A DNA stretch of 64,000 nucleotides from Candidatus Woesearchaeota archaeon (GCA_016192945.1 JACPTE010000034.1:956-64955); one strand, 5' to 3'. Shown: positions 29,061 to 39,179, numbered from the stretch's first letter. A program made the numbers and translations. Notes: a model not told the origin generated them from the sequence alone.

Positions 29061-29105
29061 AAAACATCACTGCAAGGCTCATGGCTTCCGGGTTTTTAAA
29101 TCCTT

Positions 29106-29113
29106 CTTTTTCG
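29106..29113. repeat. left 8-bp target-site duplication CTTTTTCG
   Basis: Identical octamer abuts the right TIR at 32391..32398. Confidence 0.65.
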
Positions 29114-29126
29114 TGGGCTGTTAAGT
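29114..29126. repeat. left terminal inverted repeat TGGGCTGTTAAGT
   Basis: Exact reverse complement of 32378..32390; GGGCTGTT core resembles IS26 IR GGCACTGTT. Confidence 0.7.
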
Positions 29127-29200
29127 TGTCTGGATATAGCGGGGCTTTATTCCGATAATTTAGTGGTCAAAAATCAATATTTTGATTGGAGGCTGGAAAG

Positions 29201-29323
29201 ATGAAAAATGACAAAGATTTAAATATACTCGGTAGTGATGAACCAATTGAAATGGTGAGAAGGAAACCGAAAAGGAGAAGAAAAATAAGAAGAGGATTGT
29301 TTGATGTTATTTTCAGATGGTAG
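29201..29323 (+). CDS. small basic protein (40 aa, MKNDKDLNILGSDEPIEMVRRKPKRRRKIRRGLFDVIFRW), hypothetical
   Basis: ATG preceded by GGAGG about 12 nt upstream; Arg/Lys-rich C-terminal half; lies just inside the left TIR; not in the ORF track (under 60 aa). Confidence 0.25.
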   Translation: MKNDKDLNILGSDEPIEMVRRKPKRRRKIRRGLFDVIFRW

Positions 29324-29329
29324 ATAAAC

Positions 29330-29863
29330 GTGAAAATTAACATCATTAAAGAATTTGAATATTATAAAGATTCTGTTAATGATGTTAGGTTGCTTCTTAA
29401 AACTAATTATGGTGTTATTTATGATGATTTTGATGAACCTTTTAATAAATTAATTCGGAAAGCAAAATATTCACGAATTTCGGGGAAAGATTTGTCAGAA
29501 ATTAAAGAATTATGTTTTGATTATTGGGAAAATTTGATTAAAGAAGTATCTTTCCCTATGAAAGATAGAATAAAATCCGTCAAAACTAAAAATCAAAGTT
29601 TTTTAGATATTTTGTTGAAAATTCAAGAAATTGAAAAAGATGTAGAAAAAAATCCTCACACTATTGAGGAATATCAACAGATATACGAAAATACGATAGA
29701 TTTAGCCTTAAAATTGAGTGATAGATTAGAAGTTGAGAAATTTCAAAATAAGCGGTATTGGCAAGGAATTTGGTTAAGTGGCTTAACAGGAACGATAATA
29801 GGGTTAATCATAGGATACCTTTTAAATATCTTAGTGATTATTCTTTCATCAATATACAGATGA
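29330..29863 (+). CDS. hypothetical protein with C-terminal TM anchor (element cargo)
   Basis: 177 aa, GTG start, very AT-rich codon usage, single C-terminal hydrophobic helix; no family recognised. Confidence 0.4.
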   Translation: MKINIIKEFEYYKDSVNDVRLLLKTNYGVIYDDFDEPFNKLIRKAKYSRISGKDLSEIKELCFDYWENLIKEVSFPMKDRIKSVKTKNQSFLDILLKIQEIEKDVEKNPHTIEEYQQIYENTIDLALKLSDRLEVEKFQNKRYWQGIWLSGLTGTIIGLIIGYLLNILVIILSSIYR

Positions 29864-30739
29864 CTTAATCAATCCTAACCATCTGTTTATTCCTGTTTCT
29901 ATTTTTACTCCTGCTAATTCGCAGGGCACTTTTCCTATTGTCGTATGACTTTCAATATAGTTGTGTTGTATTATTATTCCTTGCATCAGTATCGGCGCAC
30001 TCCACAGAGCTTTCAATCCTCTAAAGTCATCAACTCTGTCTTTTATTTTGCTAAATACTGTTTCTATCCTTACATTATGCTTTCCTGTTTTGCTGACATT
30101 GTTTACCCTGTGTTCAACTGTCAATGCTCCCTTTATTCCTATTTTGTTTGTGTAAAATAGTTTGTGCATTGCTTTTGGGTAGAATTGTGCAGCATCTGAC
30201 TGAATATATTTCAGCTTACCATACGCAGTCGTTCTCTTTAGGAAAATTATTGCTTCATTCACACTCTGATTTAGTGGTCTCTATAAGGTTGCGTTTATGT
30301 ATCGTGTTCTCCAATCAACAGAACACCAAAACTTATCCCCACCTTTCTTTTTTGTGTTGTAACCTCTTGGAATGTCTGTTTCATCAACATAAAGCTCCCC
30401 GCTTAATTCAGGCTTCAAAGTTTCTACAAACTTGGTTACTTTAAGGACATACTTTCTGCACCAATCCAAGACGCTTACGTGGCTTGTTTTGATGCCTTCA
30501 TGCCTTCTGTAGTGGTTTCTTACCTTTCGGCTTGAAAGGTTGCTGAAATACAAATCTATGGCTTTGGTTACTACTTGTTCGTTGTTCTTCATCTTCCAGA
30601 AGCCCAAATCCTGAATAAAGGTCTTTTTACATGGTTTGCATAGGTATATCTGTTGTTTGCCCCTATTTTGCGTTGGGCTTACTCCACGCTTTACGACCTT
30701 TGTGCCTTTGCACTTAGGACATTTTATTTGCATTTCCAT
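29849..30739 (-). pseudogene. IS6-family DDE transposase with N-terminal zinc finger, disrupted by a frameshift near 30262..30285
   Basis: N-terminal ORF 30281..30739 has CPKCKG...CKPCKK and DDE D1/D2 context (YVDETDIP...KFWCSVDWRTRYI, aligning with IS26 MDETYVKV...YRAVDSRGRTVDF). C-terminal ORF 29849..30262 continues in another frame (TTAYGKLKYIQSDAAQFYPKAM, aligning with INTDKAPAY). Confidence 0.7.
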
Positions 30740-30744
30740 AGCTA

Positions 30745-30851
30745 TTAGGTATCTAAAGAAGTATATGAATATTCAGATACCTAAAAGATACTAAACCAAA
30801 CTGCATTTTTAGATACCAAAATCTTTATATATTAGTTAGGTATCTAATAGG
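30745..30851. promoter_or_regulatory. array of four TAGGTATCTAA / TTAGATACC operator-like sites flanking the divergent transposase and abrB-like promoters
   Basis: Sites at 30745..30758 (TTAGGTATCTAAAG), 30774..30787 (CAGATACCTAAAAG), 30809..30821 (TTAGATACCAAAA), 30837..30851 (TTAGGTATCTAATAG). Pairs are inverted and bracket TATA-like boxes at about 30760..30768 (transposase) and 30824..30831 (abrB-like). Confidence 0.5.
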
Positions 30852-30854
30852 CTA

Positions 30855-31049
30855 ATGAGGCTTCTATCTCAAAAAAGCAGGGAATACAAAGGCAAAGCAT
30901 ATCACAAGTTCTGGATAGTAGTCCCCAGCAAGCTTTTGCATAAGTTGGGCTGGAAGGCTGGCGACCAATTGGAAGCAGAAGCAAAGAATAATAAACTCGT
31001 TATAACTAAAGAAGACAAAACAAGAGTAGAACTTGTAAAAGCAAAATAG
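30855..31049 (+). CDS. AbrB/SpoVT swapped-hairpin-like small DNA-binding protein (putative element regulator or antitoxin)
   Basis: 64 aa; KFWIVVPSKLLHKLGWKAGDQLEAEAKNNKLVITKED resembles AbrB/MazE-type looped-hinge-helix domains; leaderless, TATA 27 nt upstream. Confidence 0.45.
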   Translation: MRLLSQKSREYKGKAYHKFWIVVPSKLLHKLGWKAGDQLEAEAKNNKLVITKEDKTRVELVKAK

Positions 31050-31050
31050 A

Positions 31051-31314
31051 ATGGAACAAACCAAATTATCAAAATACAAGGTAAAGGATTTAATTGAAAG
31101 ACCAGAAAAAGTACTAGAAGACACAAATCCAGAAGAGTATAGATTATTAACCAACCCCTTACTATCAGAGCACGGAATAAAGAAAGAATTTCAATCATTT
31201 AAGACTAACATTCTTCTTGAAAAACTGTTAAATGACCAATATAGGACATTTTTACTGAGTTTATTTTTTTTAATTGTGGCTTTGGTGACACTATATTTTA
31301 CAATTAAAAAATAA
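31051..31314 (+). CDS. hypothetical small protein with C-terminal TM helix, translationally coupled to the abrB-like gene
   Basis: 87 aa; start 2 nt after the upstream stop; C-terminal hydrophobic helix FLLSLFFLIVALVTLYF. Confidence 0.35.
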   Translation: MEQTKLSKYKVKDLIERPEKVLEDTNPEEYRLLTNPLLSEHGIKKEFQSFKTNILLEKLLNDQYRTFLLSLFFLIVALVTLYFTIKK

Positions 31315-31322
31315 ATGATGTT

Positions 31323-31336
31323 GACTTAACAGCCCA
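31323..31336. repeat. internal third copy of the IR (GACTTAACAGCCCA), same orientation as the right TIR
   Basis: 14/14 identical to 32377..32390. Confidence 0.6.
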
Positions 31337-31412
31337 AAAAGTTGAGTTGAAGAACAGGACAAGATTTAGAATCAGAAAATGAAAGATGGGAAGTTGATTA
31401 TAGTAAGAGGGG

Positions 31413-32069
31413 TTGATATATATGCAGATAAAAGACCTTGTTACTAATAATAAGAAAAGCATCGTTTTTAACATGGACTTATTGGAGAAACCTTATTTGC
31501 AATACATCCAATTAGGAGGTCTGGCTGAGAAAATATTTAGTGATTACTGCCAAAAAAATGGGCTACAAGTTATAGGCATGGGCGAATTTGCCTACCGATT
31601 ACTTCTTTACGGTAGGAATAATGCTCCAAAGGGCGAATTTCCTTGGTACGATCGATATGGAAAAAGAACCTTTAAGAAAAAGAAAATCGACCAGTTTATG
31701 GCTATGTTTACCGAAGAGCAAATAAGATTTTTAGAAGAAAACCATCAATCGTTAGAGTATAGTATAAACAACAAAATCGTAGGTTTGCCTGATTTTTTTG
31801 TGTGGGATGATAATGGAAGGTTTGCATTTATAGAACTTAAATCTGGCTCCTCAACGCTTAGCACAAGACAAAGAAATGTTTTAAAGAAATTAACAGTCCT
31901 CTTCCCAGTATATGTTTGCCATATTTCTTGTGATGTTGTTCTTAAAGATTTACAAATAGAAAATATAGATTTTGGCTTTGTTTCTATTAACAAAGAATTT
32001 GAATTTGACAAGGGTGCTATAGTAGAGGAAAATTTATATGCACAAGCCCACAAAAGAGAAAATAGGTGA
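31413..32069 (+). CDS. VRR-NUC domain (PD-(D/E)XK) nuclease with unknown N-terminal domain
   Basis: GLPDFFVWDDNGRFAFIELKSGSSTLSTRQRNVLKKL matches the VRR-NUC pattern GxPD...hhhE.K....Ls..Q...h..L. Confidence 0.55.
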   Translation: MIYMQIKDLVTNNKKSIVFNMDLLEKPYLQYIQLGGLAEKIFSDYCQKNGLQVIGMGEFAYRLLLYGRNNAPKGEFPWYDRYGKRTFKKKKIDQFMAMFTEEQIRFLEENHQSLEYSINNKIVGLPDFFVWDDNGRFAFIELKSGSSTLSTRQRNVLKKLTVLFPVYVCHISCDVVLKDLQIENIDFGFVSINKEFEFDKGAIVEENLYAQAHKRENR

Positions 32070-32237
32070 TGCGGAGAGGATTGACATGAATGATTTGACC
32101 GAAATGAGCACAGATATTTTAGATGTAAGAATTAAAAAGTTTGAAGCTGATATTAAGAATGTTACACGAAGAGAAGATTGGGATTACTATTTTGACTTAC
32201 TTTGCTGGAAGGCACAACTTAAGAAGATGTTGATGTG

Positions 32238-32360
32238 ATGATAATGAAACCTCAATTTAAAGGGATGCCTAAATGTAGAAAATGTGGCGGGAACACTATG
32301 GCGGTATCTGGCACAAAAACAGAATGCCAAAGTTGCGGATTTGTTCAAAGTTTTGAATAA
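32238..32360 (+). CDS. small zinc-ribbon protein (40 aa, CRKCGG...CQSCG)
   Basis: ATG right after the upstream stop; two CxxC pairs; not in the ORF track (under 60 aa). The listed 32284..32661 ORF is in another frame and antisense to trpS. Confidence 0.3.
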   Translation: MIMKPQFKGMPKCRKCGGNTMAVSGTKTECQSCGFVQSFE

Positions 32361-32377
32361 AAAACAATATCCAATAG

Positions 32378-32390
32378 ACTTAACAGCCCA
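32378..32390. repeat. right terminal inverted repeat ACTTAACAGCCCA
   Basis: Reverse complement of 29114..29126, followed by the TSD. Confidence 0.7.
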
Positions 32391-32398
32391 CTTTTTCG
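32391..32398. repeat. right 8-bp target-site duplication CTTTTTCG
   Basis: Identical to 29106..29113; lies 3 nt from the trpS stop codon. Confidence 0.65.
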
Positions 32399-32400
32399 GT

Positions 32401-33522
32401 TCAGTCTCTTATGATAAACTTATCAAGGACTTTCCTTGCCTTCTCCCTGTTCTCCTGGTGCTTTTTGAGAAATGCAGACAGCTTTTCAATCAGTATCTGC
32501 TTCAGCTCTCCTGTAAGCAAAGCGCCTGTCTTGTAATCATCATAAATATTCCTGAGCTTTTCATCACTCTCCTCAAAAAAGGTGAGCCACTGGTAGCTTA
32601 CGTCAATGTCAGGGTTGCCTCCCTTCCTCCGATGCTCATCTATCGTGTCGCGGCCCCCTGAAAATGCGTAACGCCTTATCTTCCTCTCAGCAATCTCTGG
32701 GGCGTCAGTAGTGTAGATGGCTGTTTCAGCCACTGACGCAGACATCTTCCCCCCAGGCCCTGTCAATGGCGGGAGGAACCTGCAGTGGATAGAGGCTGGC
32801 TTGTAATATCCGAGCTTTGGCGCAATATCCCTCGTGACCCTGAAATGGGCATCCTGGTCTATTGCGTGCGGTATGAGGCATGGCACGTTTTTCCCCTTAA
32901 GCACTGATGGAAGGAATGACGGGACACTCTGGACTGACGTGAAGAAAAGCTGGCCGACATTGTTGCTGTCATTGAAGCCGAATACAGCCTTTGCTGTTGA
33001 CACTGTGAGCTTCCTGGCAACCCTTAGCGACTGCCTGTACAGGGTTTTGGCATAGTCTATATCCGAGAAAATGAACGTCTTTCCCTGCCTGAAGCCAAGA
33101 GCAATAACATCAAGAGCGTTTTCATACGCAAGCTTGTTTACTTCCTCAAGCTCAAGCCTCTCATTGAAAAGGTATTTCTCATCATCAGTCATCTGGAACC
33201 AAAGCTCTGCATCAAACTTGTCCTGAAGCCACTTTGTGAAAATCCAGGGAACAAGGTGGCCGATGTGCGTGTTGCCGCTCGGGCCCCTTCCTGTATAAAG
33301 ATAGAACTTGTTGCCCTTTTCGTACTCATCCAGAATCCAGTTCAGGTCTCGGTGGGAGAAGAAGATTTTCCTTCTCAGGAAGTGGTGCAGCTCTCCGGCG
33401 TGCTTCTTAATCCTCTGAAGAATCTCGTCATTGACAGGCTCTGTCCCGAAATCCTTTATCAGCCGGTTATAGTCTATATCCCCCTCAACTTTCCAGGGGG
33501 TGACTGTGAAGCTCTTTTCCAT
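32401..33522 (-). CDS. trpS: tryptophan--tRNA ligase (archaeal/eukaryotic type)
   Basis: Class I HIGH-like (PSGNTHIGHLVPW) and KMSAS motifs; 25 nt downstream of trpA in the same orientation. Confidence 0.9.
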   Translation of the reverse strand: MEKSFTVTPWKVEGDIDYNRLIKDFGTEPVNDEILQRIKKHAGELHHFLRRKIFFSHRDLNWILDEYEKGNKFYLYTGRGPSGNTHIGHLVPWIFTKWLQDKFDAELWFQMTDDEKYLFNERLELEEVNKLAYENALDVIALGFRQGKTFIFSDIDYAKTLYRQSLRVARKLTVSTAKAVFGFNDSNNVGQLFFTSVQSVPSFLPSVLKGKNVPCLIPHAIDQDAHFRVTRDIAPKLGYYKPASIHCRFLPPLTGPGGKMSASVAETAIYTTDAPEIAERKIRRYAFSGGRDTIDEHRRKGGNPDIDVSYQWLTFFEESDEKLRNIYDDYKTGALLTGELKQILIEKLSAFLKKHQENREKARKVLDKFIIRD

Positions 33523-33546: not shown

Positions 33547-34314
33547 TTAAATATTATGTATACTTCTTGCAAGGCTTTCCATCCTGTCAATTTCTGGCTT
33601 TAACCCTTCAGATGAGCCTTTTAAAGTGCGCCCTGAATAGATTTCTATTAATGCGCTTCCAACTATTACGCCATCAGCGCCAGCCCCTGCGAATCTTCTG
33701 GCCTGCCCTGCATTTGATATCCCGAAGCCAACATACAGGGTTTTTCCATTGCCTGCAAACTTCCTCATTCTTCTCACAAATTCAAGGCTTTCCTCACTCA
33801 CATCACTCCTCGCTCCTGTTGTCCCATAGGCAGAGACAAGATATGTGTACATCCCCTCATTTTCAATCAGCTCTCCTGCCCTTTCAGGAACTGTGTTAGG
33901 GGCAATCAGCTTGATGATGGATATTCCTCCAGCTTTTGCAACGACTTCTATCTCCCTGTCCTCTCCAAAAGGCAGGTCAGGGATTATCAGCCCCTGGACG
34001 CCAAAATCCTTCATTTTCTTGATGAACCTGCCCCTGCCATATGAATAAACTGTGTTGTAATATGCCATGAAAACAAAGGGGATTAAGATTCCCTCGCTTC
34101 TCAGCTCCCTTACCATCCCAAAAACCATGTCTGTGTTCGTCCCGTTATTCAAAGACCTTATAGATGCCTCCTGTATTGTTTTCCCATCAGCTATCGGGTC
34201 TGAGAACGGTATGCCCAGCTCAATTACTGCTGAATAAGGCTCCATGGCCTTGACAAAAGACTTTGTCATGCTTAAGCTTGGGTCTCCGCAGCATAAATAT
34301 GGCACAAAATTCAT
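33547..34314 (-). CDS. trpA: tryptophan synthase alpha chain
   Basis: 255 aa TIM-barrel TrpA signatures ([13 protein letters not shown]; GFGIS). Confidence 0.9.
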
Positions 34315-35489
34315 ATCAGGCCCTCTATCCTTCCCACATACTCCACATCCTTGTCACCCCTTCCTGAAAGGTTCAGGATTGCAACATCCCCTTTTTTGCA
34401 TTTCCCTGAAAGGACTGGAAGATATGCTATTGCATGCGCAGACTCCAATGCAGGGATTATTCCCTCTGTTGTGCTCAGGAGATGAAACCCTCCAAGGGCG
34501 TCTGAATCACTCACATGAACATACTCAACCCTCCTGGTCGTGCTAAGGTAAGCATGCTCAGGCCCTATGGCAGGGTAATCCAGCCCTGCGGATACTGAAT
34601 GGGTTTCCCTTATCTGGCCGAAGGGGTCCTGAAGCACATAAGTCAGGGAGCCGTGCAAAACCCCTTTTTTTCCATCGCCACTTATCCTTGCAGCATGCCT
34701 TCCTGTTGAAATGCCCTCTCCCCCAGCCTCCACTCCAACCATTTTCACATCCTTATCGTCCATGAAATGGGAAAAGAGCCCTATTGCATTGCTCCCTCCC
34801 CCAACACATGCGACCAGGTAATCAGGAAGCCTGCCCTCCTGCTCAATAACCTGCTTTCTTGCCTCAAGGCCGATAACACTCTGGAAATGCCTGACAATGC
34901 CCGGATAAGGATGCGGCCCCAATGCAGAGCCCAGGACATAGTGAGTGTCATTGCAATTAGTTGTATAATCCCTCAGGGCGTCGTTTATCGCATCCTTCAA
35001 GGTTTTTGAGCCAGAGCTGACTTTTATCACCTTGGCCCCAAGCAGGTTCATCCTGTAAACATTCAGCTTCTGCCTCTCTGCATCCTTGCTTCCCATATAG
35101 ATTTCGCACTCCAATCCAAGCAGTGCAGCCGCTGCCGCAGTTGCAACTCCATGCTGCCCAGCCCCTGTCTCTGCGATAACCCTTTTTTTCCCCATGAATT
35201 TCGCAAGAAGTGCCTGCCCGATTGTATTGTTTATCTTGTGCGCCCCTGTATGCAGAAGGTCTTCCCTTTTTAGGTATACCTTAATATTCCCAAGCCTCCT
35301 GCTCAGGTTCTCAGCAAGATACAGGGGCGTTGGCCTTCCAGCATATCTGGAGAGATAGCTATCCAGCTTAGCCTGAAACTCACTGCTCTTCACTGCCTTT
35401 TCAAAGCAGGTTTCCAACTCCTTCAGCACAGGGACAAGCAGCTCTGGAATGTATGCCCCTCCAAACTCCCCAAATCTTTTTTCAATCAT
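34311..35489 (-). CDS. trpB: tryptophan synthase beta chain
   Basis: PLP-enzyme motif HTGAHKINN and GGGSNAIG. Confidence 0.9.
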
Positions 35490-36250
35490 AGCTTCAGCTC
35501 CCTTATTTTTGCAGCCTTATCATTTGAAAGCCACAAGGATGTTCCCACAAGAATTCCCCTAGCACCTGAAGCCCTCAGGAATTCTGCATCTGTTCTTGAC
35601 CTGATGCCGCTCTCGCTGATTACAGGCTTGGATATATTTGAAAAAGAGCTGAGGATTTCAGGCGTCCTGTTCAGGCTCACTTTCAAGCTCTGCAAATCCC
35701 TGTTATTTATGCCCAGGATGTCTGCCTTTGTAAGCAGCGCCCTTTCCATCTCCCCAGTATCGTAGCATTCAAGCAGGACTTCAAGGCCATAACTGTGGGC
35801 ATACCCTATCATTGCATCAATGTCAAGGTTCAGCCTGCCAGCAACCTTTGCTATTAGAAGAATGCAGTCAGCCCCAATCCCTGATGCTGCCTTTATCTGA
35901 GCATCGCTAATTACAAAGTCCTTGAACAATACAGGAAGCCCTGCCTTTTTTGCAATTGGAATGTTATTCAGATTTCCCTTGAATATTACAGGCTCCACAA
36001 CAACTGAAATCGCATCCGCACCAGCATGCCTGAACTCAAGGGCTGCCTTTTCAACGTCAATATCCACAAACTCATATTCTCCTGCAGGCGATGCGTGCTT
36101 TATCTCTGCAATTATGCTGAAATCATTTAAGTCCAGCCTTTTTCTTAATGAAACTACTGGAGCTGCCCTCTTTTCTGTTCCACATGCTTCATAATATCCG
36201 CTTCTCAGGTTATCCCCTGCCTGCGATATGAACCTGTCAAGTATGTCCAT
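35486..36250 (-). CDS. trpC: indole-3-glycerol phosphate synthase
   Basis: 254 aa IGPS barrel ([11 protein letters not shown]; LLIA); no fused PRAI domain. Confidence 0.85.
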
Positions 36251-37250
36251 CTGAATCCCTCAGCAAATCCAGCTTTTCCATTGCCCTGCCGGAGCCAATT
36301 GATTTTTCAGCCATGCTGATACCCTGCTTTATGCTGGATGCAATCCCGCCAACATATATGGATGCGCCTGCATTAAGCAAAACAACATCCCTCGCAGGGC
36401 CAAGCCCTCCCTTAAGCACGTTTAGTATGATTCCAGCGCTTTCCCTGCAGCTGCCAGCGCATATGCCTTCAATGCGCGCCCTCTTAAATCCGAATTCCTC
36501 AGGGGTTATAATATAGCTTTCAGTCCTGCTGCCAGTGATTTCGCAAATCAGAGTCTGGCTGCTGATGCTAATCTCATCTATGTCACTGGTTGCGAGAATG
36601 GTTTTCTCTGTGCCAAGCTTTACCACAGCCTTTCCCATCTTTTCCATCAATGAGCTGCTGGGAACCCCTATGAGCTGCCTTTGCGCATTTCCAGGATTTG
36701 TCAAAGGGCCGAGCATGTTAAACACTGTCCTGAACCCAAGCTCCCTCCTTACATCGGCAACATTCCTCATTGCAGGATGGAATGATGGCGCGAAAAGGAA
36801 TGCCAGGCCGATGGAGTCAATTTGCCGCTCTGCAGTTTCCCTTCCGCAAATAATGCTGACTCCAAGTTCCTCAAGGACATCAGCACTTCCGCTTCGGCTT
36901 GATGAAGACCTGTTCCCGTGCTTTGCTATCACAGCCCCAGCCCCGGCTGCTACAATTGCAGAGCATGTTGAAATGTTGAAGGTCCCCCTGCCGTCCCCGC
37001 CTGTACCGCAGGTGTCAACCAGATTGGCAGACTTCGGGCTTATCGTTATGGCGCTTTTTTTCATCCTCATGGCAAATGCCGCGATTTCATCCGGCGTTTC
37101 ACCCTTTGCCTTGAGCAGCGACAAAAACGAGGCTATCTGGGAATTGTTAACCCTGCCCTCCATCATCTCCTGAAGCGCAAACCCCGCCTCATCACCTGTC
37201 AATTCCTGCATTTCAACCAGCTTCCCCAAAATATCATCAAATCCAGTCAT
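36237..37250 (-). CDS. trpD: anthranilate phosphoribosyltransferase
   Basis: GTGGDG motif and TrpD fold. Confidence 0.9.
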   Translation of the reverse strand: MTGFDDILGKLVEMQELTGDEAGFALQEMMEGRVNNSQIASFLSLLKAKGETPDEIAAFAMRMKKSAITISPKSANLVDTCGTGGDGRGTFNISTCSAIVAAGAGAVIAKHGNRSSSSRSGSADVLEELGVSIICGRETAERQIDSIGLAFLFAPSFHPAMRNVADVRRELGFRTVFNMLGPLTNPGNAQRQLIGVPSSSLMEKMGKAVVKLGTEKTILATSDIDEISISSQTLICEITGSRTESYIITPEEFGFKRARIEGICAGSCRESAGIILNVLKGGLGPARDVVLLNAGASIYVGGIASSIKQGISMAEKSIGSGRAMEKLDLLRDSDGHT

Positions 37251-37840
37251 CTTCCAGCCCTGCAGAAATTATCCAGTATTTTTTTGCCAGACTCAGTCAT
37301 TATTGACTCAGGATGGAACTGAACCCCGAAGATAGGAAGGTGCCTGTGCTCAACAGACATTATAGCTCCGTCATCCTTGCTCCTTGCTGTTACCCTGAGG
37401 CATCCTGGAAGGGAGGAATCCTCTGCAACAAGCGAATGGTACCTCATCACTCTCAGCGGGCTCTTAATGCCTTTAAACAGGCCTGTTGAATCGTGGCTTA
37501 TCATGCTTGTTTTTCCGTGCATCGGCTTTTCAGCCCTTACCACCCTGCCCCCGAACACGCTGACAATGCCCTGATGACCGAGGCATACGCCAAGAATTGG
37601 GAGCTTTCCATTCAATTCACGAATTACCTCGCTGCAAACCCCAAAATCCCTTTTTATTGACGGGCTTCCAGGACCAGGGGAAATGACTACCAGGCCATAT
37701 TCCCTTCGCAATACCTCTTCAATGGTTATTTCGTTATTCCTGACAACATCAACATCCAATCCAAGCTCCCTGAAAGCCTGGTAGATATTGTAAACAAACG
37801 AGTCATAATTGTCAATAAGCAACAGCCTCTTTTTTGCCAT
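37247..37840 (-). CDS. trpG: anthranilate synthase component II (glutamine amidotransferase)
   Basis: Start at internal ATG 37840 (MAKKRLLLIDNYDSFVYN); class I GATase triad (GVCLGHQ; HPE); 1 nt after the trpE stop. Confidence 0.85.
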   Translation of the reverse strand: MAKKRLLLIDNYDSFVYNIYQAFRELGLDVDVVRNNEITIEEVLRREYGLVVISPGPGSPSIKRDFGVCSEVIRELNGKLPILGVCLGHQGIVSVFGGRVVRAEKPMHGKTSMISHDSTGLFKGIKSPLRVMRYHSLVAEDSSLPGCLRVTARSKDDGAIMSVEHRHLPIFGVQFHPESIMTESGKKILDNFCRAGR

Positions 37841-37841
37841 A

Positions 37842-39179
37842 TCATTCACCACCCATCGCATCCAACAGCGCCCTGACCTTCCTTTCAGACTCATCAAACT
37901 CCCTTTCAGGAACGCTGTCATAAACAATCCCAGCCCCTGCCTGAATATATGCCCTGTTCCCTTTTGCAAAAAGAGTCCTGATTGCAATTGCAAAGTCAGC
38001 GTTCCCATTTGAGGAGAAATACCCAACAGCACCTGCATAAGGACCCCTTGAGCGCCTTTCAACAGCCCTTATTATCTCAACAGCCCTTATCTTCGGGGCG
38101 CCTGACACGGTCCCTGCAGGAAATATTGCCTTGAACGCATCAAATGAGTCCTTCCCCTTTGCGAGCCTCGCAGTAACAAGAGAGGCGATGTGCTGCACGT
38201 GCGAGTATTTGTGGACGTTCATCAGCTCAGGAACCATTACAGTGCCTATATCAGCCACTTTTCCAATGTCATTCCTTGTCAAGTCCACAAGCATTAAATG
38301 CTCTGCCCTTTCCTTCTCGTCGCTTAAAAGGTCTGCTTCCAGCTTCCTGTCTTCTTCAGGCGTTTCCCCCCTTGGCCTTGTCCCTGCAAGGGTTGCATAG
38401 CTCGTTATTCCCCTACCTTCCACGCGAATAAGGTTTTCAGGGCTTGCACCCACTATACTTCTCTCGCCAAACTTAAGGTAATACATATATGGCGAGGGAT
38501 TTATTTTCTTAAGCTTGCTATAAAACCCAATCAGGTCGCCTGAGAAGATGATATCATGCCTCCTTGACAGCACCACCTGGAAAACGTCCCCTGAGATTAT
38601 GCTTTTTTTTGCAGTTTCCACGTTCCTGCAGAACTCAACTTTTGAAAGATTGCACTTCAAGCTCCTGATTTTTAATGGGGCAGTATCCTGAACCCTTTGC
38701 TCAAACAAGCCCATTATGGAGTTAAGCCTGCTTTCCCCTGAATAAGAGTAGACTGCCTTGCCTTTCCTGTGGTCATAAATGACAGCATCATCAAAAATCC
38801 CGAACTCAAAATCAGGAAAGCCCAAATCATCCGCTTCAGCAGGCTTCACCCTTTCAATGCGGCTTATGTAGTCAAATGAGAAATACCCAACAGCACCCCC
38901 GATAAAGCCCTCTGCCTCTGAAGGAGATTTCCTAATTTCTTTCTTCAGAATTTCCAGAGGGTCATCAAACTCAGTTTCATCCCCATTTATTTTCAGGGAC
39001 TTGCCTTTAAGCACTATTGCCTTTTTCGGAGAAAACCCTATAAAGGAGAACCTTGCAAGCCTCTCAGGACCCTCGCAGCTCTCCAGGAGAAAGGCATTCT
39101 CATGGTCTCTTGAGATGGCAGTGAAAAGCTCCAAAGGCGAGATTTTCAGGTCAAGGTCAACAGACTTTGCTTTTCGCAT
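37842..39179 (-). CDS. trpE: anthranilate synthase component I
   Basis: Chorismate-binding domain signatures (GAVGYFS; SGAPK). Confidence 0.9.
   Translation of the reverse strand: MRKAKSVDLDLKISPLELFTAISRDHENAFLLESCEGPERLARFSFIGFSPKKAIVLKGKSLKINGDETEFDDPLEILKKEIRKSPSEAEGFIGGAVGYFSFDYISRIERVKPAEADDLGFPDFEFGIFDDAVIYDHRKGKAVYSYSGESRLNSIMGLFEQRVQDTAPLKIRSLKCNLSKVEFCRNVETAKKSIISGDVFQVVLSRRHDIIFSGDLIGFYSKLKKINPSPYMYYLKFGERSIVGASPENLIRVEGRGITSYATLAGTRPRGETPEEDRKLEADLLSDEKERAEHLMLVDLTRNDIGKVADIGTVMVPELMNVHKYSHVQHIASLVTARLAKGKDSFDAFKAIFPAGTVSGAPKIRAVEIIRAVERRSRGPYAGAVGYFSSNGNADFAIAIRTLFAKGNRAYIQAGAGIVYDSVPEREFDESERKVRALLDAMGGE

Follow-up and report, generated by a model that had tools for sequence, protein, structure and literature searches.

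An IS6-like transposon with cargo genes and a putative repressor beside trpS in a DPANN archaeon

Introduction

What is the AT-rich, 3.3-kb island that lies beside trpS in the genome of a Candidatus Woesearchaeota archaeon? We analysed 64,000 nucleotides of this genome (GCA_016192945.1 JACPTE010000034.1:956-64955; hereafter the window, with positions counted from its first letter), in which a transposase gene and seven further open reading frames (ORFs) lie between inverted repeats. Elements of the IS6/IS26 type are known as minimal, one-gene insertion sequences, which move other genes only by flanking them. A preliminary description, made from the sequence alone, had nevertheless proposed that the island is an IS6-type transposon that carries cargo inside its own ends. 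We conclude with high confidence that the segment at 29114-32390 is a single transposon of an IS6-like family of DPANN archaea, an account that covers its ends, its putative repressor and its cargo.

Results

A transposon with matching ends and a target duplication

The element measures 3,277 bp and is bounded by exact 13-bp inverted repeats, each abutted on its outer side by the same octamer:

29106-29113, unstranded: target-site duplication, left copy, CTTTTTCG, identical to 32391-32398; adjoins the promoter-like motif of the M50 protease gene
29114-29137, plus strand: left terminal inverted repeat, with the tip TGGGCTGTTAAGT at 29114-29126 and the subterminal motif TGTCTGGATAT
32367-32390, minus strand: right terminal inverted repeat, with the tip (exact reverse complement of the left one) at 32378-32390 and the subterminal motif ATATCCAATAG
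32391-32398, unstranded: target-site duplication, right copy, CTTTTTCG, 2 nt short of the trpS stop codon

Inwards of the tips, the terminal repeat continues imperfectly to 25 nt (84% complementary). Exact copies of the tip occur three times in the 64-kb window, at the two termini and internally at 31324-31336, and no further exact copy was found there; with up to two mismatches allowed, none of 100 shuffles matched the observed count. The GC content is 33% inside the element and 47% outside it, ranging along the sequence from 27% to 39% within and from 44% to 54% in the flanks. The repeats, the duplication and the AT-richness had all been described beforehand, and the sequence agrees with that description. 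It had also allowed that these features might be an artefact of assembly. The left junction, the right junction and the internal copy are present verbatim in independent Logan assemblies of eight runs from one project, which excludes such an artefact and shows that the structure is real.

A family of cargo-carrying elements in DPANN metagenomes

We retrieved the DNA around homologues of the transposase and scanned it for the repeat. The ends of the family follow the consensus TGRGCTGTWAAGT and then CTGCTGGATATA, and the left-end subterminal TGTCTGGATAT of the window is restricted to one subgroup. The tip, TG(A/G)GCTGT(T/A/C)AA(G/C)T, flanks the homologues at a distance and is never close to the transposase gene. 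Perfect 8-bp duplications, differing from locus to locus, bracket the end pairs in 35 other non-redundant loci; a random pair of octamers would match at all eight positions about once in 65,000. These 35 elements are 1,619-6,788 bp long (median about 2.8 kb), so that every one exceeds its transposase gene of about 0.9 kb. The earlier idea that the cargo lies inside the mobile unit thus holds well beyond the window: duplications bracket the whole unit there and in the 35 relatives, and the cargo differs between elements with the same core. Between the window element and its closest relative, nucleotide similarity is confined to the core made of the AbrB-like gene (abrB) and the transposase gene (tnp), at 29859-30977. 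Like the element of the window, the others are AT-rich (24-38% GC, in hosts of 27-49% GC).

The gene content of the family is very diverse. Among 263 ORFs in 42 elements, 138 are singletons, and only the transposase and the AbrB-like protein are widespread. A Pfam scan of the cargo (115 ORFs of at least 80 amino acids, from 41 elements) matched nine DNA methyltransferases and six restriction enzymes (Tsp45I, MjaI, Bsp6I, two of Mrr type and a type III Res subunit), together with trypsin-like peptidases with Trypco2, an NYN domain and several domains of unknown function. The usual layout, to which the window element conforms, places the larger enzymes upstream of abrB, then abrB itself, tnp, and one to three convergent genes for membrane proteins; by a crude hydropathy test, the ORF that directly follows tnp has a membrane segment in 25 of 40 elements. 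Pseudo-compound structures, i.e., loci with two copies of the transposase, were not found among these loci.

No account of the family turned up in the searchable literature, a search that did not extend to ISfinder. A 2026 survey of archaeal insertion sequences mentions neither passenger genes nor Woesearchaeota or Nanoarchaeota (PMC13343696), and the reviews of IS6 mention no such elements (PMC7986276, PMC6807381).

In two loci, L091 and L092 (ENA ERZ23486227, GCA_004196315.1), the elements lie amid long series of tiny ORFs, with fragments of tyrosine integrases and a GIY-YIG gene; they are probably inserted within other mobile elements.

A transposase with an IS6-type core and an InsA-like zinc ribbon

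The transposase matches the Pfam family DDE_Tnp_IS240 (PF13610) at 27.9 bits, just above the gathering cut-off of 27, and has 681 relatives in a search of 5.8 billion proteins. The best 120 of these 681 are 58-78% identical to it, uninterrupted and 252-328 amino acids long (mostly about 290-300); where named, they are "IS1/IS6 family" transposases of Woesearchaeota or Nanoarchaeota, and all 120 have precomputed matches to PF13610. When the window protein and four homologues were compared with NCBIfam, the IS6 model (NF033587) ranked first, at 45-69 bits and over positions 4-200 of 202. The IS1 model NF033558 ranked second (26-42 bits, cut-off 100), and the InsA-type model of IS1, NF050000, gave 27.9 bits against a cut-off of 28.

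Profile comparison with hhalign resolves this mixed signal. Residues 68-256 of the transposase align with residues 26-203 of Tnp26 of IS26 (E 2.4e-5; the Tnp26 sequence used is 100% identical to annotated IS26 transposases), pairing DET with DET, TD with SD and IE...K with IE...K, such that the catalytic D, D and E and the downstream K are all aligned. Residues 3-71 align with residues 4-67 of Escherichia coli IS1 InsA (probability 89.9%, E 1.7e-6), and the comparison with IS1 InsB gave no match (probability 0.2%). The signature of archaeal IS6 transposases, E--F---K-R, is present as IETVFSKIKDR at residues 225-235, and E226, F229, K233 and R235 are invariant in the alignment. The homologues are single, uninterrupted ORFs of about 296 amino acids and have no insA/insB frameshift. 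In PLSDB, the sole plasmid match is an annotated IS6 transposase with 25.7% identity, and no relative was found in the PDB by sequence profile.

As judged from these profiles, the enzyme is an InsA-like zinc ribbon fused to an IS6-type helix-turn-helix (HTH) and DDE core, and a distant relative of the IS6 transposases rather than a canonical member. The preliminary assignment to IS6 was therefore right about the DDE core, the 8-bp duplication and the CTGTT of the repeats, and needs amending for the distance of the relationship, the TG tip and the InsA-like N-terminus.

An AbrB-like protein and a conserved control region

Of 85 loci, 68 have a gene for an AbrB-like homologue that is transcribed away from the transposase gene. 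The two start codons are nearly always 114-117 bp apart, reaching 128 bp when the start of the transposase is placed differently, and the sites between them come in a fixed order: operator, TATA, operator, spacer, operator, TATA, operator. In the window, four operator-like sites with the core TAGGTATCTA lie at 30744-30758, 30772-30787, 30808-30823 and 30836-30852. Across the family these sites are palindromes of 10-12 bp with a variable core (for example GGTACC, GATACC, GGTTCC, GGGTACCC or GACGTC), and the core covaries with residues 4-12 of the AbrB-like protein. Operators of class CGGTACCG go with the N-terminal motif QLSK, those of class AGGTTCCT with Q(H/K)GR, those of class GGGTACCC with QKHS, and those of class AGATACCT, to which the window belongs, with Q(I/V/K)SREYKG. 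Common ancestry has a part in this pattern; even so, in the closest relative by transposase (78% identity), the operator class and the N-terminus of the AbrB-like protein both differ from those of the window. The architecture and the covariation together suggest that the AbrB-like protein is the repressor of the transposon and would act on both promoters.

Genes within the element

Eight reading frames lie between the repeats, in agreement with the preliminary description of a transposase and at least six further ORFs, and three of their products have Pfam matches above the cut-offs. From left to right, the internal features are:

29186-29323, plus strand: small basic ORF, 45 amino acids from a TTG, or 40 from the ATG at 29204 in the version of the gene callers
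29330-29863, plus strand: ORFan gene for a 177-amino-acid protein with one C-terminal transmembrane segment (tail-anchored)
29849-30739, minus strand: transposase gene of 296 codons (InsA-like zinc ribbon, HTH, IS6-type DDE), with an in-frame TAG at 30281-30283
30740-30854, unstranded: divergent control region of 115 bp, with four operator-like sites and two TATA-like boxes
30855-31049, plus strand: gene for a putative repressor of 64 amino acids with an AbrB/MazE fold (PF04014, 27.0 bits, cut-off 24.7; TIGR01439, 25.9 bits)
31051-31314, plus strand: gene in one operon with the AbrB-like gene; its 87-amino-acid product has a hydrophobic C-terminus
31324-31336, minus strand: internal 13-bp repeat tip, in the orientation of a right end
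31413-32069, plus strand: gene for a VRR-NUC nuclease of the PD-(D/E)XK type (PF08774, 34.5 bits, cut-off 23.8)
32038-32238, plus strand: ORF of 66 amino acids, called as a gene in independent assemblies
32235-32360, plus strand: zinc-ribbon ORF of 41 amino acids (CxxC...CxxC), with only weak zinc-ribbon-like Pfam matches

The gene for the 177-amino-acid protein and the transposase gene are convergent, and their 3' ends overlap by 15 nt; among the 5.8 billion sequences the protein matches only itself, and its NCBI record is a hypothetical protein of a Candidatus Woesearchaeota metagenome-assembled genome (MAG). The small basic ORF has no match in Pfam, PADLOC or PHROGs and no relative in 85 family loci, and the 87-amino-acid protein has no family match in the same three databases.

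The nuclease likely starts at the ATG at 31422. Its catalytic residues D127, E141 and K143 are intact in the alignment. It has only five relatives, and a 69%-identical homologue in L177-L179 is encoded by the gene nearest an end that resembles the inverted repeat, which makes the nuclease a recurrent cargo of the arms. The AlphaFold model is of moderate quality (predicted local distance difference test, pLDDT, 67.5), and Foldseek found it weakly HincII-like, with weak local matches to the VRR-nuc domain of FAN1 and to Hjc. With a moderate model and weak matches, we limit the claim to a PD-(D/E)XK nuclease. PADLOC and PHROGs returned nothing useful for the window cargo, and no defence model matched it. 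A nuclease encoded apart from any methyltransferase, together with small zinc-ribbon and membrane proteins, is compatible with a role in defence or addiction.

Host and insertion site

The element is flanked by the trp operon and trpS on one side and by the genes for an M50-type protease, a 114-amino-acid protein (p114) and the helicase-nuclease Hef on the other. The closest relatives of TrpS (72-84% identical) come from groundwater MAGs labelled Woesearchaeota or Micrarchaeota, and the host is thus a DPANN archaeon, with about 47% GC. The gene order trpS, M50, p114, Hef is retained in three related species, L010, L011 and L014 (the L010 contig ends before Hef), and no protein of the element was found at their trpS-M50 locus. 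The gap between the two genes spans 1000 bp in L010, 1435 bp in L011 and 357 bp in L014. In the first two, the spacer (L010 2794-3793, L011 7870-9304) contains a pair of AbrB/VapB-like and PIN/VapC-like genes. It appears to be a site of variable accessory genes across the lineage.

In the window, the stop codon of trpS is at 32401-32403 on the minus strand, and the element sits in a gap of about 55 bp between this codon and the likely M50 promoter. The motif AAGGATTTAAAAAC, at 29092-29105 on the minus strand, is directly beside the left duplication; four genomes (the window, L010, L011 and L014) conserve it, about 35-45 nt ahead of the start codon of M50. It is probably the B recognition element (BRE) and TATA box of the M50 promoter; the insertion lies immediately beside it and leaves it undisrupted. 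Rfam and tRNA scans of the window had no matches, which excludes a tRNA gene as the insertion site. A scan for promoters and terminators of bacterial type gave no information for an archaeal host.

We looked up the exact proteins TrpS, M50, a transposase fragment, the nuclease and the 177-amino-acid protein, and obtained contigs that bear the insertion, with one exception. L007 (Logan SRR12113390) encodes an identical M50 protein and diverges from the window exactly at the element boundary, 29113; its remaining 45 nt (L007 1-45) are unrelated and AT-rich, and match neither the repeat nor the trpS flank. Possible explanations are a co-occurring strain in which this position has a different neighbour or insert, and a chimeric end of the contig. 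Several Logan contigs (L002, L003, L005, L006 and L008) break within the transposase or nuclease genes and not at the element ends, and L005 has additional mismatches close to its end; these breaks may be due to strain variants in the community or to the presence of related transposase sequences there. The first 19 nt of L009 are an untrimmed Nextera/Tn5 mosaic-end adapter, AGATGTGTATAAGAGACAG, and not biology.

A full trpE, G, D, C, B, A operon lies next to trpS at 33547-39179. This is unusual in a DPANN-type genome, as these archaea are usually described as biosynthetically reduced.

A nonsense codon in this copy

The transposase gene contains a defect that the preliminary description had not recorded. 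An in-frame TAG at 30281-30283 (minus strand) replaces Tyr153, a position that is nearly invariant (over 90% Tyr) in 13 full-length homologues; the adjoining, nearly invariant Ser is Arg in the window, and the remaining invariant residues are intact. The TAG is seen in two independent assemblies. Recoding of TAG by the host was considered and rejected: this codon terminates 9 of the 47 long ORFs of the window and is thus a normal stop in the host. Hence this copy is probably immobile. Could the TAG be a regulatory device instead, through low-level read-through or through a truncated protein of 152 amino acids that acts as an InsA-like repressor? IS1 employs InsA as a repressor, the truncated product would retain the InsA-like zinc ribbon and the HTH, and the other invariant residues have been kept. 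Yet in-frame stops of any kind occur in only 2 of 86 family copies, with none other at this position, the homologues encode Tyr at this site, one substitution turns TAY into TAG, the stop is an ordinary one for the host, and the neighbouring Ser has mutated as well. We consider a regulatory role highly improbable. The window copy is an otherwise intact element with a recently inactivated transposase gene.

The internal repeat and the origin of the long element

The preliminary description was right about a third copy of the repeat, and relatives (L109, L119 and L143) have additional internal ends of a similar kind. Its likening of the resulting modules to the translocatable units of IS26 is an analogy. 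The copy in the window is also present in an independent contig, L182. It consists of the 14-nt tip only, and no sequence resembling a duplication flanks the segment between it and the right terminus, 31337-32390. It is the full unit that the CTTTTTCG pair encloses, and so all 3,277 bp moved together in the latest transposition.

Elsewhere in the family, a right end meets the left end of a different element across exactly 8 bp (L095 1423-1456, L111 4637-4670 and L130 7652-7685). In L111 and L130, this 8-bp spacer is the duplication of the complete element, and the neighbour in L130 is a remnant end beyond which host genes lie.

How, then, did the long element arise? It could be a fusion of two transposons, a complete 2.2-kb element (29114-31336) and the right arm of a second one (31337-32390), brought together either through a deletion that removed the DNA between adjacent copies or through a right end further out. 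The exact tip at 31324-31336 invites this explanation, as do the 40 nt that precede each copy of the right end, which are 73% alike, the pairs of ends in the same orientation 0.3-0.5 kb apart in L109, L119, L143 and L120, the abutting ends in L095, L111 and L130, and the end-proximal position of the nuclease homologue in another element. Three observations pull the other way: there is no subterminal GGATAT motif at the internal copy, 31337-32390 has no duplication around it, and the 8-bp duplication brackets the entire unit. We regard such a fusion as possible, though we lean somewhat away from it; as it concerns the origin of the element, it is compatible with the present unit being a single transposon. 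More generally, the elements may lengthen when an end further out is used or when the DNA between neighbours is deleted.

Alternative explanations

Two other explanations concern the nature of the element itself. One is that it is not a true IS6 element and belongs to a separate, chimeric IS1/IS6 family, whose chemistry could be cut-and-paste and not copy-in. Such a family would account for NCBIfam IS6 scores of 45-69 bits where 125 are demanded, for the accompanying matches to the IS1 model, for the homology of the N-terminus to InsA, for the double name that NCBI gives to the relatives and for the single, distant plasmid record. It would also suit the proposal of Harmer and Hall to remove archaeal and zinc-finger "IS6" elements from the family (PMC6807381). 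We still judge it unlikely, given that the catalytic domain aligns with Tnp26 and not with InsB, that the 8-bp duplication and the repeat core CTGTT, in register, are traits of IS6, and that the homologues are uninterrupted. The other explanation, a small integrated plasmid or virus that uses the DDE enzyme as an integrase, draws on the many tiny ORFans and membrane proteins, the AT-richness, a regulator of the AbrB type, such as archaeal viruses and plasmids have, and the location of some relatives inside larger regions with fragments of tyrosine integrases. It fits poorly with elements as small as 1.6 kb and with the form of their ends: inverted repeats flanked by 8-bp duplications are what transposition leaves behind, and site-specific integration does not. 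The 115 cargo ORFs contain no capsid, replication or packaging family save one marginal Rep3_N (E 2e-4). A viral origin was rejected, as IMG/VR holds no relative of the transposase and PHROGs gave only weak matches; an integrated plasmid or virus thus seems to us extremely improbable.

Several observations weigh against our account of a single IS6-like transposon that carries a repressor and cargo. The window transposase, at 45 bits, lies far below the NCBI equivalog cut-off for IS6 (125 bits), and all family members examined have a repeat tip of TG, where IS26 has GG. The binding of the AbrB-like protein is predicted from covariation, a signal that common descent of the sequences compared can inflate; ORF calling and membrane-segment prediction in the family survey used simple heuristics. 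Among the passenger genes of the window, only the AbrB-like gene and that of the nuclease recur in other elements. The exact-protein look-ups yielded neither a second copy of this exact element nor a strain-level empty site, the string of the element-free site, AAATCCTTCTTTTTCGGTTCAGTCTC, not having been searched itself. Cointegrates, circles and excision are not in evidence, and a copy-in mode, the only one in the definition of IS6, is suggested by homology to IS26, with no more than indirect hints in the ends that adjoin across 8 bp in L095, L111 and L130.

Discussion

A proposed mechanism

The DPANN element can be pictured as follows. A single DDE transposase would recognise the terminal repeats of about 25 bp, and the element inserts with an 8-bp staggered cut; by analogy with IS26, copy-in formation of a cointegrate would be followed by resolution through host recombination. 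The AbrB-fold protein may bind the four palindromic operators that bracket the two TATA boxes, and would thereby repress its own operon and the transposase gene. The arms outside the core carry exchangeable passengers, here the VRR-NUC nuclease with two small proteins, of which one is a zinc ribbon, and a further three that are small or anchored in the membrane; in the window, a core of 2.2 kb was probably extended by 1.05 kb when a more distant, second right end was used, and capture through such alternative ends, like the functions of the cargo, is something we infer. The element, foreign in composition, most probably arrived by horizontal transfer from a DPANN lineage of low GC content. Its target was the 55-bp gap that separates the trpS stop from the M50 gene, just upstream of the promoter-like motif. 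The nonsense mutation of Tyr153 would have come later, leaving a copy that could now move only with a transposase supplied in trans.

Whether the family plays a wider role is harder to say. We find it about as easy to believe as to doubt that a DPANN-wide, repressor-controlled family is a main shuttle of restriction-modification, nuclease and membrane-protein genes from one DPANN lineage to another across large differences in GC content, that its AbrB-operator pairs have split into specificity classes comparable to immunity groups and that its members grow by taking up DNA as far as a second, more distant end. If this were so, genome-reduced symbiotic archaea would have a route for exchanging restriction-modification and other defence-type genes across lineages, the family would offer a natural set of matched variants of AbrB-operator specificity, and a compact archaeal system of transposase and ends could be tested as a genetic tool. 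The mobile elements of DPANN archaea are almost unstudied. In the window, the AT-rich island beside trpS finds an explanation as a recently acquired and now disabled transposon.

Comparison with known systems

IS6 elements have 14-bp repeats and 8-bp duplications, are mostly 0.7-0.9 kb long, and include a sole member with a passenger gene, ISDsp3 (PMC7986276). The DPANN elements and IS26 have in common an HTH-DDE transposase, which aligns with Tnp26 over 171 columns including D, D, E and the downstream K, the 8-bp duplication, and repeats with CTGTT at positions 5-9 and G at position 7 (PMC7986276, PMC6807381; the IS26 repeat, GGCACTGTTGCAAA, was verified on a plasmid). They differ in the low identity of the transposases (23-26%), the additional InsA-like zinc ribbon, the longer repeats (about 25 bp), and the separate gene for an AbrB-type regulator with its operator array. 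Every DPANN member examined has passengers inside its repeats and measures 1.6-6.8 kb, against about 0.8 kb for IS26. Moreover, elements of IS6 are single-ORF and free of passengers (0.7-0.9 kb, up to 1.76 kb), whereas that of the window has 3,277 bp and seven ORFs besides the transposase. The element thus works like IS6, but falls outside the family by its NCBI equivalog score and by the single-gene, cargo-free organisation.

The archaeal clades of IS6 (Halobacteria, Thermococcales, Methanococcales, Sulfolobales) share the E--F---K-R signature and repeats longer than 14 bp (PMC6807381), but are single-gene elements of 0.7-0.75 kb without zinc ribbon, regulator or cargo; the DPANN elements lie outside both reviews. 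The long clostridial IS6 elements (clade h, or VII-VIII) also have an N-terminal zinc finger before the HTH-DDE core (PMC7986276, PMC6807381). In contrast to the DPANN elements, they are bacterial, single-ORF and 1.2-1.8 kb long, with transposases of 340-450 amino acids, compared with about 296 here; the zinc ribbon of the DPANN enzyme is InsA-like, and the extra length of its element is due to cargo and not to the transposase. With IS1, the family shares a zinc ribbon and HTH start homologous to InsA and the principle of control by a dedicated DNA-binding repressor, whereas InsB is unrelated at the level of sequence profiles, the programmed frameshift is absent and the regulator is a separate protein of AbrB fold.

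Passengers within the ends, often of restriction-modification or defence type, are also found in Tn7-like transposons with defence cargo (PMC8649781) and in transporter insertion sequences (tIS). The DPANN elements are much smaller and have one transposase gene, and targeting, ATPase and resolvase genes are absent from the listed cargo families. Like tIS, the window element and its 35 relatives hold genes unrelated to transposition inside their repeats, and these move with the element. An IS6-related transposase here drives true unit transposons, with a putative repressor of their own, an array of operator-like sites and interchangeable cargo.

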